From assembly GCF_029227855.1 (NCBI RefSeq), contig NZ_CP074356.1: a stretch of DNA of 64,000 nucleotides; one strand, given 5' to 3'. Under the pieces are notes generated by a model. The model searched no databases, was not told the DNA's origin, and saw only the letters and a program-made list of their open reading frames with translations. The DNA is from Escherichia coli (GTDB lineage: Bacteria > Pseudomonadota > Gammaproteobacteria > Enterobacterales > Enterobacteriaceae). Made by a program: the position numbers and the translations under genes. Below, piece by piece: positions 38,985 to 64,000 of the stretch; position 1 is the stretch's first letter, and the number at the start of each line of letters is the position of its first letter.

Positions 38985-39313
38985 TGGAGACGTTTCACTG
39001 GAAAGTGCGCCCGGATATGAATGTGGTATCAGAGCCGAAAGTGGTGACAGTGAAGCTGGGCGATGGTTATGAACAGCGTCGTGCGGCGGGACTGAATAAC
39101 CAGTTGTCGACTTACAGCGTGACGATACGTGTTCGTAAATGTGAACACCCATCTTTAAAAGCCTTTCTGGAACGGCACGGTGGCGTCCGCGCATTTCAGT
39201 GGACGCCACCTTATGACTGGAAGCCGATCAGGGTGGTTTGTCGTAAATGGTCGGCAAGCGTGGGGGCGCTGTGGGTAACCATAACGGCAGATTTTGAACA
39301 GGTCGTGGCATAG
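38984..39313 (+). CDS. minor tail protein M
   Basis: 109-aa ORF overlapping tape-measure stop; lambda M position. Confidence 0.85.
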   Translation: METFHWKVRPDMNVVSEPKVVTVKLGDGYEQRRAAGLNNQLSTYSVTIRVRKCEHPSLKAFLERHGGVRAFQWTPPYDWKPIRVVCRKWSASVGALWVTITADFEQVVA

Positions 39314-39322
39314 GAGGCCCTG

Positions 39323-40021
39323 ATGCAGGATATTCCACAGGAAACACATCATGAGACGACACGCCTTACTCAGTCAGCCCAGGTGGTGCTCTGGGAAATC
39401 GATCTGACAGAGGTCGGTGGTGAACGTTATTTTTTCTGTAATGAGCAGAACGAAAAAGGTGAGCCGGTCACCTGGCAGGGGCGGCAGTATCAGGTATACC
39501 CTATTCAGGGGACGGGATTTGAACTGAACGGTAAGGGTAGTGCTGCCCGTCCGACACTGACGGTCTCTAACCTGCACGGCATGGTCACCGGGATGGTGGA
39601 AGACCTGCAGAGTCTGGTCGGCGGAACGGTGGTCAGGCGTAAGGTTTACGCCCGTTTTCTGGATGCGGTGAACTTCGTCAACGGAAACAGCGACGCCGAT
39701 CCGGAGCAGGAGGTGATCAGCCGCTGGCGCATCGAGCAGTGCAGCGAACTGAGTGCGGTCAGTGCCTCCTTTGTGCTCTCCACACCGACGGAAACGGATG
39801 GTGCTGTTTTTCCGGGGCGCATCATGCTGGCCAACACCTGCACCTGGACCTATCGCGGTGATGAGTGCGGTTATCATGGTCCGGCTGTCGCGGATGAATA
39901 TGACCAGCCGACGTCCGATATCACGAAGGATAAATGCAGCAAATGCCTGAGCGGCTGTAAGTTTCGCAATAACGTCGGCAACTTTGGCGGCTTCCTTTCC
40001 ATTAACAAACTTTCGCAGTAA
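39323..40021 (+). CDS. minor tail protein L
   Basis: 232-aa ORF with C-terminal Cys cluster (CTWTYRGDECGY...CSKCLSGC); lambda L position. Confidence 0.85.
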   Translation: MQDIPQETHHETTRLTQSAQVVLWEIDLTEVGGERYFFCNEQNEKGEPVTWQGRQYQVYPIQGTGFELNGKGSAARPTLTVSNLHGMVTGMVEDLQSLVGGTVVRRKVYARFLDAVNFVNGNSDADPEQEVISRWRIEQCSELSAVSASFVLSTPTETDGAVFPGRIMLANTCTWTYRGDECGYHGPAVADEYDQPTSDITKDKCSKCLSGCKFRNNVGNFGGFLSINKLSQ

Positions 40022-40025
40022 TCCC

Positions 40026-40769
40026 ATGACACAGACAGAATCAGCGATTCTGGCGCACGCCCGGCGATGTGCGCCAGCGGAGTCGTGCGGCTTCGTGGTG
40101 AGAACGCCGGAGGGGGAAAGATATTTTCCCTGCGTGAATATCTCCGGTGAGCCGGAGGATTATTTCCGGATGTCGCCGGAGGACTGGCTGCAGGCAGAGA
40201 TGCAGGGTGAGATTGTGGCGCTGGTCCACAGTCATCCCGGTGGTCTGCCCTGGCTGAGTGAGGCTGACCGGTGGCTGCAGGTGCAGAGTGATTTGCCGTG
40301 GTGGCTGGTCTGCCGGGGGGCGATTCACAAGTTCCGCTGTGTGCCGCATCTCACCGGGCGGCGCTTTGAGCACGGGGTGACGGACTGTTACACGCTGTTC
40401 CGGGACGCTTACCATCTGGCGGGGATTGAGATGCCGGATTTTACGCGGGAGGATGACTGGTGGCGTCACGGTCAGAATCTCTATCTGGATAATCTGGAGG
40501 CCACAGGGCTGTATCAGGTGCCGTTGTCAGCGGCGCAGCCGGGCGATGTGCTGCTGTGCTGTTTTGGTTCATCGGTGCCGAATCACGCCGCAATTTACTG
40601 CGGCGACGGCGAGCTGCTGCACCATATTCCTGAACAACTGAGCAAACGAGAGAGGTATACCGACAAATGGCAGCGACGCACACACTCCCTCTGGCGTCAC
40701 CGGGCATGGCGCGCATCTGCCTTTACGGGGATTTACAACGATTTGGTCGCCGCATCGACCTTCGTGTGA
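40026..40769 (+). CDS. tail assembly protein K (JAB/MPN plus NlpC/P60-like)
   Basis: HSHPGG motif (JAB/MPN-like) and downstream Cys/His region; lambda K position. Confidence 0.85.
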   Translation: MTQTESAILAHARRCAPAESCGFVVRTPEGERYFPCVNISGEPEDYFRMSPEDWLQAEMQGEIVALVHSHPGGLPWLSEADRWLQVQSDLPWWLVCRGAIHKFRCVPHLTGRRFEHGVTDCYTLFRDAYHLAGIEMPDFTREDDWWRHGQNLYLDNLEATGLYQVPLSAAQPGDVLLCCFGSSVPNHAAIYCGDGELLHHIPEQLSKRERYTDKWQRRTHSLWRHRAWRASAFTGIYNDLVAASTFV

Positions 40770-41308
40770 AAACGGGGGCTGAAGCCATCCGGGCGCTGGC
40801 CACACAGCTCCCGGCGTTTCGTCAGAAACTGAGCGACGGCTGGTATCAGGTACGGATTGCCGGGCGTGATACAGGTGAAACGGAATTATCAGCCCGTCTT
40901 AATGAACCGCTGGCAAATGGTGCTGTGATCCATATCGTGCCGCGTCTGGCAGGAGCCAAAAGTGGCGGTGTGTTTCAGGCTGTGCTGGGGGCGGCTGTTA
41001 TGGCGGTTGCTATATGGATGCCGGGGGTAGGAATTATGGCGAGTAATCTGCTGTTTTCTCTCGGTGCCAGTATGACGCTTGGCGGTGTTGCACAGATGCT
41101 GGCCCCTAAACCCAAAACCCCCCGCACACAGACAACGGATAACGGCAAACAGAACACCTATTTTTCTTCACTGGATAATATGGTTGCCCAGGGCAATGTT
41201 CTGCCCGTTCTGTACGGTGAAATGCGCGTGGGATCACGTGTGGTATCTCAGGAGATCAGCACAGCAGATGAAGGTGATGGTGGTCAGGTTGTGGTGATTG
41301 GTCGCTGA
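40667..41308 (+). CDS. tail assembly protein I
   Basis: 213-aa ORF overlapping K 3' end; ubiquitin-like N-terminus and hydrophobic C-terminal segment. Confidence 0.8.
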   Translation: MAATHTLPLASPGMARICLYGDLQRFGRRIDLRVKTGAEAIRALATQLPAFRQKLSDGWYQVRIAGRDTGETELSARLNEPLANGAVIHIVPRLAGAKSGGVFQAVLGAAVMAVAIWMPGVGIMASNLLFSLGASMTLGGVAQMLAPKPKTPRTQTTDNGKQNTYFSSLDNMVAQGNVLPVLYGEMRVGSRVVSQEISTADEGDGGQVVVIGR

Positions 41309-41368
41309 TGAAAAACGTTTTATGTGAAACCGCCTCCGGGCGGTTTTATCGTTTATGGAGCATGACGA

Positions 41369-44300
41369 ATGGGTAAAGGCAGCAGTAAGGGGCATACCCC
41401 GCGCGAAGCGAAGGACAACCTGAAGTCCACGCAGCTGCTGAGTGTGATCGATGCCATCAGCGAAGGGCCGGTTGAAGGTCCGGTGGATGGATTAAAAAGC
41501 GTGCTGCTGAACAGTACGCCGGTGCTGGACAGTGAGGGGAATACCAATATATCCGGCGTCACGGTGGTGTTCCGGGCCGGTGAGCAGGAGCAGACTCCGC
41601 CGGAGGGATTTGAATCCTCCGGTTCCGAGACGGTGCTGGGTACGGAAGTGAAATATGACACGCCGATCACCCGCACCATCACGTCGGCAAACATCGACCG
41701 TCTGCGCTTTACCTTCGGTGTGCAGGCACTGGTGGAAACCACCTCAAAGGGGGACAGGAATCCATCGGAAGTCCGCCTGCTGGTTCAGATACAACGTAAC
41801 GGTGGCTGGGTGACGGAAAAAGACATCACCATTAAGGGTAAAACCACCTCGCAGTATCTGGCCTCAGTGGTGGTGGATAACCTGCCGCCGCGCCCGTTTA
41901 ATATCCGGATGCGCAGGATGACGCCGGACAGCACCACAGACCAGCTGCAGAACAAAACGCTCTGGTCGTCATACACCGAAATCATCGATGTGAAACAGTG
42001 CTACCCGAACACGGCACTGGTCGGCGTGCAGGTGGACTCGGAGCAGTTCGGCAGCCAGCAGGTGAGCCGTAATTATCATCTGCGAGGGCGTATTCTGCAG
42101 GTGCCGTCGAACTATAACCCGCAGACGCGGCAATACAGCGGTATCTGGGACGGGACGTTTAAACCGGCATACAGCAACAACATGGCCTGGTGTCTGTGGG
42201 ATATGCTGACCCATCCGCGCTACGGCATGGGGAAGCGTCTCGGTGCGGCGGATGTGGACAAATGGGCGCTGTATGTCATCGGCCAGAATTGCGACCAGTC
42301 GGTGCCGGATGGCTTTGGTGGCACGGAGCCGCGCATCACCTGTAATGCCTGGCTGACCACGCAGCGCAAGGCGTGGGATGTGCTCAGTGATTTCTGCTCG
42401 GCGATGCGCTGTATGCCGGTATGGAACGGGCAGACGCTGACGTTCGTGCAGGACCGGCCATCGGATAAGGTGTGGACCTATAACCGCAGTAATGTGGTGA
42501 TGCCGGATGATGGCGCGCCGTTCCGCTACAGCTTCAGCGCCCTGAAGGACCGTCATAATGCCGTTGAGGTGAACTGGATTGACCCGAATAACGGCTGGGA
42601 GACGGCGACAGAGCTTGTGGAGGACACGCAGGCCATTGCCCGTTACGGTCGTAACGTCACGAAGATGGATGCCTTTGGCTGTACCAGCCGGGGGCAGGCA
42701 CACCGCGCCGGGCTGTGGCTGATTAAAACAGAACTGCTGGAAACGCAGACCGTGGATTTCAGCGTCGGCGCAGAAGGGCTTCGCCATGTACCGGGCGATG
42801 TTATTGAAATCTGTGATGATGACTATGCCGGTATCAGCACCGGTGGTCGTGTGCTGGCGGTGAACAGCCAGACCCGGACGCTGACGCTCGACCGTGAAAT
42901 CACGCTGCCATCCTCCGGTACCACGCTGATAAGCCTGGTTGACGGAAGTGGCAATCCGGTCAGCGTGGAGGTTCAGTCCGTCACCGACGGCGTGAAGGTA
43001 AAAGTGAGCCGTGTTCCTGACGGTGTTGCTGAATACAGCGTATGGGGGCTGAAGCTGCCGACGCTGCGCCAGCGACTGTTCCGCTGCGTGAGTATCCGTG
43101 AGAACGACGACGGCACGTATGCCATCACCGCCGTGCAGCATGTGCCGGAAAAAGAGGCCATCGTGGATAACGGGGCGCACTTTGACGGCGAACAGAGTGG
43201 CACGGTGAATGGTGTCACGCCGCCAGCGGTGCAGCACCTGACCGCAGAAGTCACTGCAGACAGCGGGGAATATCAGGTGCTGGCGCGCTGGGATACGCCG
43301 AAGGTGGTGAAGGGTGTGAGCTTTATGCTTCGCCTGACCGTGGCAGCGGATGACGGCAGTGAGCGGCTGGTCAGCACGGCCCGGACGACGGAAACCACAT
43401 ACCGCTTCAGGCAGCTGGCGCTGGGAAGCTACAGGCTGACAGTCCGGGCGGCAAATGCCTGGGGGCAGCAGGGCGATCCTGCATCGGTATCGTTCCGGAT
43501 TGCCGCACCGGCAGCGCCGTCGCGGATTGAGCTGACGCCGGGCTATTTTCAGATAACCGCCACGCCCCATCTTGCCGTTTATGATCCGACGGTACAGTTT
43601 GAGTTCTGGTTCTCGGAAAAGCGGATTGCGGATATCAGGCAGGTTGAAACTACAGCCCGCTATCTTGGCACGGCGCTGTACTGGATAGCTGCCAGTATCA
43701 ATATCAAACCGGGCCATGATTATTATTTTTACATCCGCAGTGTGAACACCGTTGGCAAATCGGCATTTGTGGAGGCTGTTGGCCAGCCGAGTGATGATGC
43801 ATCCGGCTATCTGGATTTTTTCAAAGGCGAGATAGGGAAAAGCCATCTGGCTCAGGAGCTGTGGACGCAGATTGATAACGGTCAGCTTGCGCCTGACCTG
43901 GCTGAAATCAGGACGTCCATTACGGATGTCAGCAATGAAATCACGCAGACCGTCAATAAGAAACTGGAAGACCAGAGTGCGGCAATCCAGCAGATACAGA
44001 AGGTTCAGGTTGATACAAATAATAACCTGAACAGCATGTGGGCTGTGAAGCTGCAGCAGATGCAGGACGGACGCCTTTATATCGCGGGTATTGGTGCCGG
44101 TATTGAGAATACCCCTGACGGTATGCAGAGTCAGGTGCTGCTGGCGGCGGACAGGATTGCGATGATTAATCCTGCGAATGGCAACACAAAACCGATGTTT
44201 GTTGGTCAGGGCGATCAGATATTCATGAACGAAGTGTTCCTGAAATATCTGACGGCTCCCACCATTACCAGCGGCGGTAATCCTCCGGCATTTTCCCTGA

Positions 44301-44848
44301 CACCGGACGGGCGGCTGACGGCGAAAAATGCCGATATTAGCGGTAACGTGAATGCGAACTCCGGGACGCTCAACAACGTCACGATTAACGAGAACTGCCG
44401 GGTTCTGGGAAAACTGTCCGCGAACCAGATTGAAGGCGATCTCGTTAAAACAGTGGGCAAAGCTTTCCCCCGGGACTCCCGTGCACCGGAACGGTGGCCA
44501 TCAGGGACCATTACCGTCAGGGTTTATGACGATCAGCCGTTTGACCGGCAGATTGTTATTCCGGCGGTGGCATTCAGCGGCGCTAAACATGAGAGAGAGC
44601 ATACTGATATTTACTCCTCATGCCGTCTGATAGTGCGGAAAAACGGTGCTGAAATTTATAACCGTACCGCGCTGGATAATACGCTGATTTACAGTGGCGT
44701 TATTGATATGCCTGCCGGTCACGGTCACATGACGCTGGAGTTTTCGGTGTCAGCATGGCTGGTAAATGACTGGTATCCCACAGCAAGTATCAGCGATCTG
44801 CTGGTTGTGGTGATGAAGAAAGCCACCGCAGGCATCAGTATCAGCTGA
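41369..44848 (+). CDS. host specificity protein J (central tail fibre)
   Basis: 1159-aa ORF in lambda J position. Confidence 0.9.
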
Positions 44849-44867
44849 ATTTTATAACCCATATACG

Positions 44868-44891
44868 GGCGCCAGAAATGGCGCCTTTTTT
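44868..44891 (+). terminator. rho-independent terminator after J
   Basis: Hairpin ggcgccagaaatggcgcc followed by TTTTTT. Confidence 0.6.
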
Positions 44892-44915
44892 ATTGCAGAA
44901 AAGCGAGAGGTAATT

Positions 44916-45515
44916 ATGCGTAAAGTTTGTGCCGCCATTTTTTCCGCAGCCATTTGTCTGGCCGTATCCGGTGCGCCTGCATGGGCATCTGAACATCAGT
45001 CCACGCTGAGCGCGGGGTATCTTCATGCCTCGACGAACGTTCCCGGCAGCGATGATCTGAACGGGATTAACGTGAAATACCGTTATGAGTTTACGGACAC
45101 ACTGGGGATGGTGACGTCATTCAGCTATGCAGGAGACAAGAATCGCCAGCTTACCCGTTACAGCGATACCCGCTGGCATGAAGATTCCGTGCGTAACCGC
45201 TGGTTCAGCGTGATGGTGGGGCCGTCTGTGCGCGTGAATGAATGGTTCAGCGCGTATGCGATGGCGGGTATGGCTTACAGCCGTGTTTCGACTTTCTCCG
45301 GAGATTATATCCGCGTAACTGACAACAAGGGGAAAACGCACGATGTGCTGACCGGAAGTGATGACGGTCGCCACAGCGACACGTCTCTGGCATGGGGGGC
45401 TGGCGTGCAGTTTAACCCGACCGAATCCGTGGCCATTGATATTGCTTATGAAGGTTCCGGCAGTGGCGACTGGCGCACTGACGGTTTCATCGTTGGTGTC
45501 GGTTATAAATTCTGA
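44916..45515 (+). CDS. lom: Lom/Ail family outer-membrane beta-barrel protein
   Basis: 199-aa ORF with signal peptide, ends GVGYKF (aromatic C-terminal residue typical of OM barrels), SD gagagg. Confidence 0.9.
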
Positions 45516-45541
45516 TTAGCCAGGTAACACAGTGTTATGAC

Positions 45542-45568
45542 AGCCCGCCGGTTCAGGCGGGCTTTTTT
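45542..45568 (+). terminator. rho-independent terminator after lom
   Basis: Hairpin agcccgcc...ggcgggct followed by TTTTTT. Confidence 0.6.
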
Positions 45569-46250
45569 GTGCACAGAAAACCCCCAGCTAGGCTGGGGGT
45601 TCCGGAAAGCTTTCAGCTTTGAGCCAGTTATTAAAACCCCTTTTGATTTGTTAAAACACTTTGCGGTCTGGCAACTGCAAGTGTCAAACAAGAAATCAAA
45701 AGGGGGTCCCAATGGGGAACGAAAAGAGCTTAGCGCACACCCGATGGAACTGTAAATATCACATAGTTTTTGCGCCAAAATACCGAAGACAGGTGTTCTA
45801 CAGAGAGAAGCGTAGAGCAATAGGCAGTATTTTGAGAAAGCTGTGTGAGTGGAAAAGCGTACGGATTCTGGAAGCTGAATGCTGTGCAGATCATATCCAT
45901 ATGCTTGTGGAGATCCCGCCCAAAATGAGCGTATCCGGGTTTATGGGATATCTGAAAGGGAAAAGCAGTCTGATGCTTTACGAGCAGTTTGGTGATTTGA
46001 AATTCAAATACAGGAACAGGGAGTTCTGGTGCAGAGGGTACTACGTCGATACAGTGGGTAAGAACACGGCGAAGATACAGGATTACATAAAGCACCAGCT
46101 TGAAGAGGATAAAATGGGAGAGCAGTTATCGATTCCCTATCCGGGCAGCCCGTTTACGGGCCGTAAGTAACGAAGTTGGATGCAAATGTCAGATCGTGTG
46201 CGCCTGTTAGGGCGCGGCTGGTAAGAGAGCCTTATAGGCGCATTTGAAAA
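45569..46250 (+). mobile_element. IS200-type insertion sequence (IS200/IS605 family)
   Basis: Y1 (HUH) transposase gene flanked by short noncoding ends; perfect palindrome cccccagctaggctggggg at 45581-45599 near the left end; boundaries approximate. Confidence 0.7.
45712..46170 (+). CDS. tnpA: IS200-type transposase TnpA
   Basis: 152-aa product MGNEKSLAHTRWNCKYHIVFAPKYRRQVFY... with HUH-like HMLVEIPP and catalytic Tyr region. Confidence 0.85.
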   Translation: MGNEKSLAHTRWNCKYHIVFAPKYRRQVFYREKRRAIGSILRKLCEWKSVRILEAECCADHIHMLVEIPPKMSVSGFMGYLKGKSSLMLYEQFGDLKFKYRNREFWCRGYYVDTVGKNTAKIQDYIKHQLEEDKMGEQLSIPYPGSPFTGRK

Positions 46251-46290
46251 ACCTCCGGCTATGCCGGAGGATATTTATTGTGGAGTGGAT

Positions 46291-48696
46291 ATGGCAGCAG
46301 TAAAAATCTCAGGTGTGCTGAAAGATGGTGCGGGAAAACCAATACAGAACTGCACTATTCAACTGAAGGCAAAGCGTAACAGCACCACGGTACTGGTGAA
46401 CACGGTGGCTTCTGAAAATCCGGATGAAGCCGGACGTTACAGCATGGATGTTGAGTATGGCCAGTACAGCGTCACCCTGCTGGTTGAAGGTTTTCCGCCT
46501 TCACATGCCGGGACCATTACCGTCTATGAAGGCTCCAGACCAGGTACGCTGAATGATTTTCTCGGTGCCATGACGGAAGATGATGTCATGCCGGAGGCAT
46601 TGCGTCGTTTTGAGGCAATGGTGGAAGAAGTGGCACGCAACGCCGAAGCCGCCTCTCAGAGCGCAGCGGCGGCAAAGAAATCCGAAACTGCAGCGGCATC
46701 ATCAAAGAACGCGGCGAAAACCTCAGAAACGAATGCAGCTAATAGTGCACAGGCGGCAGCGACCTCAAAGACTGCATCGGCAAACTCCGCGACAGCAGCC
46801 AAAAAATCAGAAACCAACGCGAAAAATAGCGAGACAGCCGCAAAGACGAGCGAAACCAACGCAAAGTCCAGCCAGACGGCAGCGAAAACCAGCGAAACGA
46901 ATGCCAAAGCCAGTGAAACTGCGGCAAAAAACAGCCAGGTTGCAGCAGCCCAAAGCGAGAGCGCGGCAGCCGGTTCTGCGACTTCAGCAGCTGGATCAGC
47001 AACTGCTGCGGCTAACAGCCAGAAAGCTGCGAAGACGAGTGAAACTAACGCAAAGTCCAGCCAGACGGCAGCGAAGACCAGCGAAACGAATGCCAAAGCC
47101 AGTGAAACTGCGGCGAAAAGCAGTCAGGATGCAGCGGCCCAAAGCGAGAGTGCCGCAGCCAGTTCTGCAAGCGCGGCGGCTGCTTCTGCCACTGCATCAG
47201 CCAACAGTCAAAAAGCAGCAAAAACCAGTGAAACCAACGCAAAGGCGAGCGAGACTGCGGCGGCGAACTCGGCGCAAGCATCGGCAGCAAGCCAGACAGC
47301 AGCTAAAGCAAGTGAAGACGCAGCCAGAGAGTATGCAAGCCAGGCAGCGGAGCCGTATAAATATGTCTTACAGCCACTGCCTGATGTGTGGATACCGTTT
47401 AACGATTCACTGGATATGATTACGGGCTTTTCGCCATCATATAAAAAAATTGTTATTGGCGACGATGAAATAACAATGCCTGGCGACAAGATTGTAAAGT
47501 TTAAACGCGCATCGAAAGCAACTTACATTAATAAATCTGGTGTGCTGACAGAGGCTGCCATTGACGAGCCACGATTTGAACGTGATGGCCTGCTTATTGA
47601 GGGGCAAAGAACTAACCTGCTAATCAATTCAACAAATCCGACTAAATGGAACAAGTCGTCAAATATGATCTTAAGTGCATCAGGTGTAGATGATTTCGGA
47701 TTCCAGTACGCAAAATTTACATTAAAACCAGAAATGGTAGGGCAAATTTCAGCGATTAACATAGTAACCGTTTCCGGCAGTAAAGGTTTTGATGTAACAG
47801 GCGGAGAAAAGTATGTAACCATATCATGCAGGGTGCAAAGTGGCACTCCAAATTTAAGATGCCGATTACGATTTGAAAACTATGATGGTTCTACCTACAC
47901 ATTCTTAGGTGACGCTTACTTAAATACGACAGATTTATCTATTGATAAGACGGGTGGTGCCGCTAATCGCATTACTGCAAGGGCTGTTAAAGATGAAGCA
48001 AGCAAATGGATCTTTTTTGAGGCGACAATTAAGGCACTTGATACAGAAAATATGATAGGTGGAATGGTTCAGTATGCCCCGGCAAAAGGAGTGGGCACTG
48101 GCGCGGATGATTATATTTATATTGCGACCCCTCAAGTTGAAGGTGGGGCGTGCGCTTCATCGTTTATTATAACAGGCGCATCCCCTGTAACACGCGCCAG
48201 CGATATTGTAACGGTCCCCATTTCTCTAAATTGGTGCAATCCCGCTATTAGTTCATTAGCAGAAGTTAATACCAATTGGGATGAATCGCCAAACAAAGAA
48301 GGTAGCGCACGTATTCTTAATATTTCCACTACGGGAGATACAACTGAAATTGCAGATGAAAGTTATATGTATTTGGGGTATACATCTTTGGGAGCACGCG
48401 CAATCATTACAAATGGTAAAGGCACTAAAATAGAATATAAAAGCGTTATAGAACGACCAGAGAGAAAAAGCATTATCGGCTTTAGATTCACAGAAAGTCG
48501 AGAATTGTGTGTTGTGGTTAACGGTAATATTGGTGCTAAGGTGGTTTCTCCTTATAAAAAACACAAATATACAGGAGGCTTCATTAATATTGGTGGTCAA
48601 TCATCATCCGGCAACCGTCACCTATTTGGACACGTTCGAAATCTGCGTATTTGGCACAAGGCATTGACTGATGCTCAGATGGGGGAGTCAATCTAA
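46291..48696 (+). CDS. stf: side tail fibre protein (Stf-like) with repeat-rich shaft and distinct C-terminal receptor-binding region
   Basis: N-terminus MAAVKISGVLKDGAGKPIQNCTIQLKAKRNSTT... matches conserved Stf N-terminal domain; Ala/Lys/Thr/Ser/Glu-rich repeats; AT-richer C-terminal third. Confidence 0.85.
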   Translation: MAAVKISGVLKDGAGKPIQNCTIQLKAKRNSTTVLVNTVASENPDEAGRYSMDVEYGQYSVTLLVEGFPPSHAGTITVYEGSRPGTLNDFLGAMTEDDVMPEALRRFEAMVEEVARNAEAASQSAAAAKKSETAAASSKNAAKTSETNAANSAQAAATSKTASANSATAAKKSETNAKNSETAAKTSETNAKSSQTAAKTSETNAKASETAAKNSQVAAAQSESAAAGSATSAAGSATAAANSQKAAKTSETNAKSSQTAAKTSETNAKASETAAKSSQDAAAQSESAAASSASAAAASATASANSQKAAKTSETNAKASETAAANSAQASAASQTAAKASEDAAREYASQAAEPYKYVLQPLPDVWIPFNDSLDMITGFSPSYKKIVIGDDEITMPGDKIVKFKRASKATYINKSGVLTEAAIDEPRFERDGLLIEGQRTNLLINSTNPTKWNKSSNMILSASGVDDFGFQYAKFTLKPEMVGQISAINIVTVSGSKGFDVTGGEKYVTISCRVQSGTPNLRCRLRFENYDGSTYTFLGDAYLNTTDLSIDKTGGAANRITARAVKDEASKWIFFEATIKALDTENMIGGMVQYAPAKGVGTGADDYIYIATPQVEGGACASSFIITGASPVTRASDIVTVPISLNWCNPAISSLAEVNTNWDESPNKEGSARILNISTTGDTTEIADESYMYLGYTSLGARAIITNGKGTKIEYKSVIERPERKSIIGFRFTESRELCVVVNGNIGAKVVSPYKKHKYTGGFINIGGQSSSGNRHLFGHVRNLRIWHKALTDAQMGESI
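46650..47300 (+). repeat. tandem and near-identical direct repeats inside stf (about 110-bp copies at 46861-46975 and 47050-47164, 189-bp period)
   Basis: Repeated blocks gcaaagtccagccagacggcagcgaa(a/g)accagcgaaacgaatgccaaagccagtgaaactgcggc...; many spurious ORFs on both strands. Confidence 0.75.
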
Positions 48697-48977
48697 TGAA
48701 AGATTTAACACTCAAATTTGCCGACAGGGCCGATTTTTCGGCCTTTATGGGAAGTATTGGCTATTATAATGACGAGTCGATGCAGGATGATATTCTGATT
48801 GATGTGATAGGTAACGTGTACAAAGAAACCGGAGAGCTGACTGAAGATGGCGAACCGGTATGTGTTAAGGAAGATGGATATTTTGTAAACGTGCGCATCA
48901 TTAAGGATACGCAAATATCGTCATTATTCGATGAATACGCGGTTGCTGTTGAGCATCAACTTCGTGGCTGGATGTGA
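48696..48977 (+). CDS. hypothetical protein downstream of stf
   Basis: 93-aa acidic ORF, ATG overlaps stf stop. Confidence 0.5.
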   Translation: MKDLTLKFADRADFSAFMGSIGYYNDESMQDDILIDVIGNVYKETGELTEDGEPVCVKEDGYFVNVRIIKDTQISSLFDEYAVAVEHQLRGWM

Positions 48978-48986
48978 GGTAGAGAA

Positions 48987-49691
48987 ATGGCTACATCAAC
49001 AGTAATTCCGGGAGACATCACCACGCTGAAGGGAGATGTTAGTAAAGCAAAGGAAGATATTTCCTCTATTAACGGAAAAGTATCAACGCTTCAGACTGAT
49101 ATGGCCAGTGCAAAGCAGGATATCAGCACCAGATACACAAAAACTGAAGTTGATAATAAGCTGAAAAACAAAGTGGAAGTGAACGATCTGGAAAGTGGTC
49201 GTTATGGCGGAGATTTTTACCCGCTGACTGGCCGTGAAGCGTTTTATTTATGGGGATTGGGCACAACTACAGCGGCGGCAAATCTTTATCTTAATCCTGA
49301 CCCTGCAATTTCGTCTGTGCTGCGGTCAACATCGTCTATCCGCTATAAACATTCAGTAGAGACGATAGATTCAGAGCACGCCGATCTCATTTTCAGGATG
49401 CGCCCTGTGTGGTACAGGTCGCAATGCGAAAATGACAGGCGTGACTGGGGATTCTATGGATTGATTGCCGAGGAAGTTGGAGAAATTGCCCCTCAGTTTG
49501 TTCACTGGCGACCAGCCAACGAAGATGATGCACCGGAAACCATTTCCAGCAATGGCCTTGTTGCCGAAGGTGTAATGTACGAACGTCTGGTTGTTCCACT
49601 GATTCACCATATCCAGAAGCTGACTGAAAGAGTTGATGAACTTGAGTCAGAATTAAAGTTGTTATCCGTTTCCCGAAGCGATATCGGATAA
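48987..49691 (+). CDS. tail-fibre-associated protein with N-terminal coiled coil and C-terminal intramolecular-chaperone (peptidase S74-like) region
   Basis: C-terminal segment IRYKHSVETIDSEHADLIFRMRPVWYRSQCENDRRDWGFYGLIAEEVGEIAPQFV resembles the autoproteolytic chaperone domain of tailspike/fibre proteins (pattern recall only). Confidence 0.55.
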   Translation: MATSTVIPGDITTLKGDVSKAKEDISSINGKVSTLQTDMASAKQDISTRYTKTEVDNKLKNKVEVNDLESGRYGGDFYPLTGREAFYLWGLGTTTAAANLYLNPDPAISSVLRSTSSIRYKHSVETIDSEHADLIFRMRPVWYRSQCENDRRDWGFYGLIAEEVGEIAPQFVHWRPANEDDAPETISSNGLVAEGVMYERLVVPLIHHIQKLTERVDELESELKLLSVSRSDIG

Positions 49692-49701
49692 AGGAGGCGT
49701 A

Positions 49702-49995
49702 ATGGATATAACACCTTTCCTTCATGCACTTTGTGCTGTGGCTGCGCAGGTACTGGTTGGTCTTTTTACCGGAAACTGGGCTTACGGGGCGATAGCTGGT
49801 TGTACGTTCTTCATTGCGCGTGAACATACCCAGGCAGAATATCGCTGGATTGAAATGTTCGGGCATGGCAAGCGTATGAATATGCCGTGGTGGGGCGGTT
49901 TTGATCCGCGTGCGTGGGATGTGGCAAGCCTGATGGATTTTGCTGTGCCGGTGGTGGCGTGTCTGCTGGTCTGGCTGTTGGTTAATCGTGGGTGA
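49702..49995 (+). CDS. hypothetical membrane protein
   Basis: 97-aa ORF with strong SD aaggagg; hydrophobic segments at both ends. Confidence 0.5.
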   Translation: MDITPFLHALCAVAAQVLVGLFTGNWAYGAIAGCTFFIAREHTQAEYRWIEMFGHGKRMNMPWWGGFDPRAWDVASLMDFAVPVVACLLVWLLVNRG

Positions 49996-50005
49996 AAAAA
50001 GGTGA

Positions 50006-50125
50006 GCTGTATATGCAACGGAGGAAGAAACCTCGTTGCGGGAAGCCTTGAAGAAGTATCGGGTGTTGCTGAACCGTGTTGATACGTCAACTGCACAGGA
50101 TATTGAATGGCCAGCACTGCCGTAG
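50006..50125 (+). pseudogene. 3' remnant of a tail fibre assembly gene (tfa)
   Basis: Frame without start codon encoding ...[36 protein letters not shown], resembling the remembered conserved Tfa C-terminus. Confidence 0.55.
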
Positions 50126-50222
50126 GGTAAAACATATAAATTCTATAATTAGATGTATCTTTCCATTTACGGCAAGGAAGGGGGCTTGGAAGACGTAAGG
50201 CATCTCACACCGAGATTATTTT

Positions 50223-62821: not shown

Positions 62822-63721
62822 ATGTCGCGAAAAGATGGGGTGTTGGCGCTACTGGTAGTGGTCGTATGGGGGCTGAATTTTGTGGTCATCAAAGTGGGGC
62901 TTCATAACATGCCACCGCTGATGCTGGCCGGTTTGCGCTTTATGCTGGTCGCTTTTCCGGCTATCTTTTTTGTCGCACGACCGAAAGTACCGCTGAATTT
63001 GCTGCTGGGGTATGGATTAACCATCAGTTTTGCGCAGTTTGCTTTTCTTTTTTGTGCCATTAACTTCGGTATGCCTGCTGGACTGGCTTCGCTGGTGTTA
63101 CAGGCACAGGCGTTTTTTACTATCGTACTTGGCGCATTTACTTTCGGTGAGCGGCTGCATGGCAAACAATTGGCGGGGATTGCCTTAGCGATTTTTGGCG
63201 TACTGGTGTTAATCGAAGATAGTCTGAACGGTCAGCATGTGGCGATGCTCGGCTTTATGTTGACCCTGGCGGCAGCATTTAGTTGGGCGTGTGGCAACAT
63301 CTTCAATAAAAAGATCATGTCGCACTCAACGCGCCCGGCGGTGATGTCGCTGGTAATCTGGAGCGCATTAATCCCAATCATTCCCTTCTTTGTTGCCTCG
63401 CTGATTCTCGATGGTTCCGCAACCATGATTCACAGTCTGGTCACTATCGATATGACCACCATCTTGTCTCTGATGTATCTGGCGTTTGTGGCGACAATTG
63501 TTGGTTATGGGATCTGGGGGACGTTACTGGGACGCTATGAAACCTGGCGGGTTGCACCGTTATCGTTACTGGTGCCCGTAGTAGGACTGGCAAGTGCGGC
63601 ACTATTGTTGGATGAACGCTTAACGGGTCTACAATTTTTCGGTGCGGTGCTCATTATGACCGGGCTGTATATCAATGTATTTGGCTTGCGGTGGCGTAAA
63701 GCGGTAAAGGTTAGAGGCTAA
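62822..63721 (+). CDS. eamA: O-acetylserine/cysteine exporter EamA (DMT superfamily)
   Basis: 299-aa ORF from ATG 62822 (MSRKDGVLALLVVVVWGLNFVVIKVG...), two EamA-type repeats. Confidence 0.9.
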   Translation: MSRKDGVLALLVVVVWGLNFVVIKVGLHNMPPLMLAGLRFMLVAFPAIFFVARPKVPLNLLLGYGLTISFAQFAFLFCAINFGMPAGLASLVLQAQAFFTIVLGAFTFGERLHGKQLAGIALAIFGVLVLIEDSLNGQHVAMLGFMLTLAAAFSWACGNIFNKKIMSHSTRPAVMSLVIWSALIPIIPFFVASLILDGSATMIHSLVTIDMTTILSLMYLAFVATIVGYGIWGTLLGRYETWRVAPLSLLVPVVGLASAALLLDERLTGLQFFGAVLIMTGLYINVFGLRWRKAVKVRG

Positions 63722-63724
63722 ACC

Positions 63725-63770
63725 ATACGCACAGAATGTGATGCCAGCACTCTGTGCGTATGCTTTTATC
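63725..63770. terminator. hairpin between convergent genes (probable bidirectional terminator)
   Basis: Perfect 12-bp inverted repeat catacgcacaga / tctgtgcgtatg with 14-nt loop, followed by cttttat. Confidence 0.5.
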
Positions 63771-64000
63771 GCGGGAAAAAGTACTTTACCTGGAACTCGA
63801 AAATATTGCTGTAAAGTAACGAATAATCCAGCGGAATAGAGTTACTGTCCACAGCCTGGGTCTGAATTTTAAGTATGGGATCCCGTGGGCTGATCCGTAA
63901 AATACTGGCGATTTCTGGGGTAGGAAAAGTAGGGGAGAAAGTTTCAAAGGTGCCAATGATTTTGATCCCGCATTCGTTCTCAATATACGAAAATTTGGAT
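63769..64000 (-). CDS. 3' end of an unidentified ORF running off the window edge
   Basis: Open minus-strand frame ending ...LLYSNIFEFQVKYFFPR with stop at 63769-63771; does not match the marB I expected here. Confidence 0.25.

Follow-up and report, generated by a model that had tools for sequence, protein, structure and literature searches.

The minus-strand open reading frame at the right end of the analysed DNA is very probably the final third of a genuine gene, encoding a 232-aa transcriptional regulator of the HutC subfamily and standing first of six in a bgc-type island between eamA and marB. We put the probability of this reading at roughly 95%. The analysed DNA, below called the window, is a stretch of 64,000 nucleotides from Escherichia coli. 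The features at its right end are listed here.

62822..63721, plus strand: eamA, O-acetylserine/cysteine exporter (ORF list and annotation of the identical DNA of strain 7/2).
63712..64000, no strand assigned: left end of the island (three-way alignment of the junctions, K-12 against both island ends).
63724..63762, no strand assigned: inverted repeat between the convergent stop codons, CATACGCACAGA ... TCTGTGCGTATG.
63766..64000, minus strand: 3' end of a bgcR-type GntR/HutC-family regulator gene, which runs past the window edge.

The TAA stop codon of the frame occupies positions 63766-63768 and its last 77 codons occupy positions 63769-63999. The minus-strand frame 63766-63999 translates to SKFSYIENECGIKIIGTFETFSPTFPTPEIASILRISPRDPILKIQTQAVDSNSIPLDYSLLYSNIFEFQVKYFFPR followed by the stop, with the C-terminus ...FEFQVKYFFPR, and is unbroken up to the window edge. 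The window covers 235 nt of the gene, about 465 of its 699 nt lying past position 64000; the N-terminal two thirds of the regulator and the adjoining operon are known from other genomes. The sequence-only reading had described a minus-strand frame with this C-terminus that did not resemble MarB, and had considered it the sole open frame on that strand. Both observations hold: the translation is as given, blastp finds no match between it and MarB, and both other minus-strand frames contain stops in a three-frame translation of the window end.

WP_020233615.1, a 232-aa protein of strain 7/2, ends in exactly these 77 residues, and its complete sequence recurs unchanged on at least 1,000 contigs of public data. 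A BLAST comparison of the window end with E. coli genomes had been proposed as a check. Positions 63700-64000 (301 nt) have megablast matches in 2,550 of the 5,426 complete genomes, many of them 100% identical, and the annotation of the matched region is always 'GntR family transcriptional regulator' together with eamA.

The fragment alone matches the UTRA domain of Pfam (PF07702) with E=3.1e-10 and 40.4 bits, the cut-off being 23.8. The match spans profile positions 73-135 of 141, and the part in the window encodes only the C-terminal half of the domain. In the full-length protein WP_020233615.1 the UTRA domain is recognised with E=6e-30 and the N-terminal GntR winged-helix domain (PF00392) with E=8.4e-19; in the window strain the latter part lies beyond position 64000. 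The nearest solved structures are those of the HutC-family protein YvoA/NagR (3e-21), followed by YydK and DasR. None of the NCBIfam equivalog models reaches its cut-off with the regulator, which is thus not one of the named HutC-family regulators of E. coli K-12. The window fragment differs from the CFT073 allele in three nucleotides, all three synonymous. Between the full genes of strains 7/2 and CFT073 there are 11 synonymous and four non-synonymous codon differences, a substitution pattern that fits purifying selection on the regulator gene.

The whole island occupies positions 14023-20300 of L001 in strain 7/2 and is 6,278 bp long. The gene order is the same in strains 7/2, CFT073 and CFSAN061763, whose DNA equals that of the window end or nearly so: ydeE on the minus strand, eamA on the plus strand, the GntR regulator on the minus strand, then genes for PTS components IIB, IIC and IIA, a porin and a glucosidase, all on the plus strand, and finally marB-marA-marR on the minus strand. 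The PTS components belong to the lactose/cellobiose family, the porin is of the LamB type (557 aa), and the last gene of the operon encodes a GH1 6-phospho-beta-glucosidase. The domains of all six proteins were confirmed by Pfam and NCBIfam, the glucosidase scoring 1036 bits where 624 is the cut-off. The divergent intergenic region between the regulator and the PTS genes has a length of 198 bp (L001 14766-14963). The G+C content is 42.5% in the island vs 46.5-48.8% in its flanks. In the junction alignment, the similarity to K-12 ends at about position 63712, within the last codons of eamA, and resumes just past the stop codon of marB.

This beta-glucoside PTS island with its regulator is very probably one already described. 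In its passage on bgc, PMC3585215 (citing Neelakanta, Sankar and Schnetz 2009) describes BgcR as a positive regulator of a five-gene bgc operon. Genes c1955-c1960 of CFT073 appear in the corresponding part of PMC2831201 as six genes, 'PTS system, cellobiose specific', that are variable among strains. Compared by description, the island matches the bgc/bgcR locus of extraintestinal E. coli in its layout, a GntR-type regulator divergent from IIB, IIC, IIA, porin and phospho-beta-glucosidase genes; CFT073 has the block and K-12 lacks it, and no difference between the two loci was detected at this level. CFT073 holds the exact six-gene block at its eamA-marB site, although its record gives new locus tags only. 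The 2009 report by the same three authors, in Appl Environ Microbiol, is said to give the order bgcE (IIB), bgcF (IIC), bgcI (IIA), bgcH (porin) and bgcA, with bgcR divergent. The same work reportedly found that bgc expression depends on CRP and that the locus occurs mainly in group B2.

The name BgcR itself is absent among the exact-sequence clusters of the regulator, which bear generic names only, such as 'GntR family transcriptional regulator'. This would be expected if the island were an uncharacterised paralogous beta-glucoside PTS locus with a HutC-type regulator, distinct from the published bgc/bgcR. We consider that improbable, as the set of IIB, IIC, IIA, porin and phospho-beta-glucosidase with a divergent GntR-type regulator fits the secondary description of bgc in the passage of PMC3585215, and both the gene number and the description fit c1955-c1960 of CFT073, a strain that carries exactly this block. 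Identification of the island with bgc also agrees with its porin and its divergent regulator, which reportedly correspond to BgcH and bgcR.

Assuming the island to be bgc, a mechanism may be outlined. The porin would let beta-glucosides (cellobiose, arbutin and salicin, the substrates named in the literature) cross the outer membrane, the IIB, IIC and IIA components would take them up and phosphorylate them, and the phospho-beta-glucosidase would cleave the product into glucose-6-phosphate and the aglycone or glucose. Porin, PTS and glucosidase together would then form a complete route from the cell exterior inward. The regulator would bind the 198-bp divergent promoter region with its helix-turn-helix domain, at one of the palindromes there, and activate the operon, as stated in the passage of PMC3585215. 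By analogy with NagR, DasR and TreR, the ligand of its UTRA domain is probably a sugar phosphate, in this case a phosphorylated beta-glucoside. Activation would reportedly occur together with CRP. The divergent region contains a putative CRP-like site, TGTGATCAGTGTACCA, that agrees with the consensus at 8 of 10 positions, and two short palindromes at L001 14877-14892 and 14939-14952, with the sequences TACTGTGATCAGTGTA and CTGTTATATACCAG; all three are pattern matches only. The CRP-like site and both palindromes are candidate operator sites.

The HutC-family members characterised so far are mostly repressors. YvoA/NagR of B. subtilis, YydK, and DasR of Streptomyces share the GntR winged helix and the UTRA domain with the regulator and align with it over nearly the full length (E from 3e-21 to 3e-15). 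Their targets are sugar and PTS genes, and their signals are sugar phosphates. However, the sequence relation is distant, and these proteins are repressors of amino-sugar genes, whereas BgcR is the reported activator of a beta-glucoside operon. The activator role of BgcR derives from one study.

According to the part of PMC4488073 that treats these systems, bgc is one of four cryptic beta-glucoside operons in E. coli, the others being chb, asc and bgl. The regulators and loci of these three all differ from those of the island. Like the island, chb (chbBCARFG) encodes lactose/cellobiose-family PTS components IIB, IIC and IIA, but at a different locus. The IIC and IIA proteins of the island show sub-threshold similarity to ChbC and ChbA in NCBIfam, the island proteins remaining below the chb equivalog cut-offs. 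As to the regulators, ChbR is of the AraC type, AscG is of the LacI type and BglG is an antiterminator.

The two states of the eamA-marB junction were counted in the complete E. coli genomes.

Left end of the island (window 63700-64000): 2,550 of 5,426 genomes, about 47%.
Island covered to at least 80%: 2,493 of 5,426 genomes.
Contiguous (empty) eamA-marB junction of the K-12 type: 2,484 of 5,426 genomes.

The island is thus a common presence/absence polymorphism, divided about half and half in the sequenced collection. Its spread over about 47% of the complete genomes is wider than the reported prevalence of bgc, said in 2009 to be mainly in group B2. CFT073 carries the island and an ST131 genome (H35) has the empty site; both strains are of phylogroup B2, so that both junction states occur within this group. 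The empty site of the ST131 genome is colinear with K-12 and has no scar, which suggests replacement of the allele by recombination rather than excision. Five matches to the island left end or to the whole island are on records classed as plasmids. One such record, NZ_CP141085.1 (385,579 bp), bears the whole island and may be a piece of chromosome or a large chromid.

Since only 235 nt of the gene fall inside the window, the regulator could be a disrupted remnant in the window strain, or the island could be rearranged past the window edge, for example by insertion of an IS element or loss of a part. Such copies do exist: IS600 or IS903B lies inside the island in a few genomes (hits H57 and H58), and among 2,563 matching genomes there are about 70 in which less than 80% of the island is covered. 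Moreover, no complete genome matches the window strain exactly. Nevertheless, about 97% of the island carriers have an essentially complete island, the visible part of the gene is identical to intact alleles, and all six genes are intact in the genome most closely related over the last 25 kb. A broken copy in this strain is accordingly a slim prospect, slightly slimmer than that of a paralogous locus, and we take the window edge to cut a normal regulator gene.

The openness of the frame is weak evidence by itself, as a run of 77 codons free of stops would arise by chance with a probability of about 0.017 at the local base composition; hence its coding status must be decided by homology. As a probability of this size matters over 64 kb of sequence, the frame could in principle be a chance one in non-coding DNA, and the sequence-only reading had named a noncoding frame as one of its options. 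This is refuted by the exact agreement of the fragment with the C-terminal residues of an annotated, conserved protein found on so many contigs, by the significant UTRA match obtained from the fragment alone, and by the fact that the differences from the CFT073 allele are synonymous only. A chance open frame was rejected on these grounds, and we regard it as extremely improbable.

The same reading had expected marB to converge on eamA here and had asked whether its version of the K-12 order was wrong. It was not: in K-12 MG1655 marB does converge on eamA, at a distance of 30 bp. MarB is a protein of 72 aa ending in ...YYNQHAM, and in K-12 its gene holds the position, converging on eamA, that the regulator gene holds in the window, but the two sequences have no similarity. 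A blastp comparison of MarB with the window fragment gave no match even at E<=100, and a search of the whole 64-kb window with marB and marRAB DNA (blastn) and with MarB (tblastn) gave chance matches only, with E>=2.5. That the window end is marB or the mar operon read in a wrong frame, as the K-12 order with marB directly after eamA might suggest, is thus the least credible of the alternatives, with next to no probability, rejected by blastp, blastn and tblastn alike and by the position of marB about 6.3 kb further on in island-bearing genomes. The remaining option, that the strain differs at this place, was the correct one, as the six-gene island of 6.28 kb separates eamA from marB. In the window strain marB should be found about 6.3 kb past the window end. 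The K-12 gene order is valid for K-12 and not for the window strain, and the failure to find marB at this place reflects ordinary variation of the accessory genome.

The C-terminus of EamA is ...KVRG in the window (63710-63721) vs ...KVGS in K-12. The last two residues differ because the similarity to K-12 ends inside the final codons of the gene. Between the convergent stop codons of eamA and the regulator gene, the inverted repeat at 63724-63762 forms a perfect stem of 12 bp, and CTTTTAT is next on the plus strand. The predicted RNA fold has an energy of -22.8 kcal/mol (z = -3.0 vs shuffles). A simple terminator scan of positions 63500-64000 called no terminator, as the loop and the T-run of this hairpin are outside the rules of the scan. 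Judged by the predicted fold, the hairpin probably terminates transcription of eamA, and it possibly acts in both directions.

In K-12, a single GC-rich hairpin, GCCCCGAgatgTCGGGGC, lies between the convergent eamA and marB genes. Island-bearing strains have, in its place, two unrelated hairpins at the island ends, one at 63724-63762 and the other at about 20272-20293 of L001. It is conceivable, but in our opinion quite unlikely, that the exchange of hairpins and the changed end of EamA alter read-through or termination at marRAB or eamA. If they did, roughly half of all E. coli strains could be altered in their mar-dependent antibiotic tolerance or in cysteine export.

The best match to window positions 39001-64000 among the complete RefSeq E. 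coli genomes is CFSAN061763, with 99.3% identity over 97% of the length; the last 998 nt of the window are identical to strain 7/2. As the best match reaches only these values, either this part of the window is a recombinational mosaic or the source strain is outside the complete RefSeq collection. Positions from about 39000 to 52000 contain the tail half of a lambdoid prophage, with genes for tail tip protein J, Lom and tail fibres, and pinQ, ydfK and ynfT. In the annotation of the closest genomes it adjoins a 5'-truncated ydfJ, which points to a Qin-type prophage site. Finally, the interval between dcp and ydeI in related genomes contains an 81-nt fragment of a 2-oxo-tetronate isomerase gene (L001 9443-9523, corresponding to about 59142-59222 of the window) and, unlike in K-12, no ydeJ.
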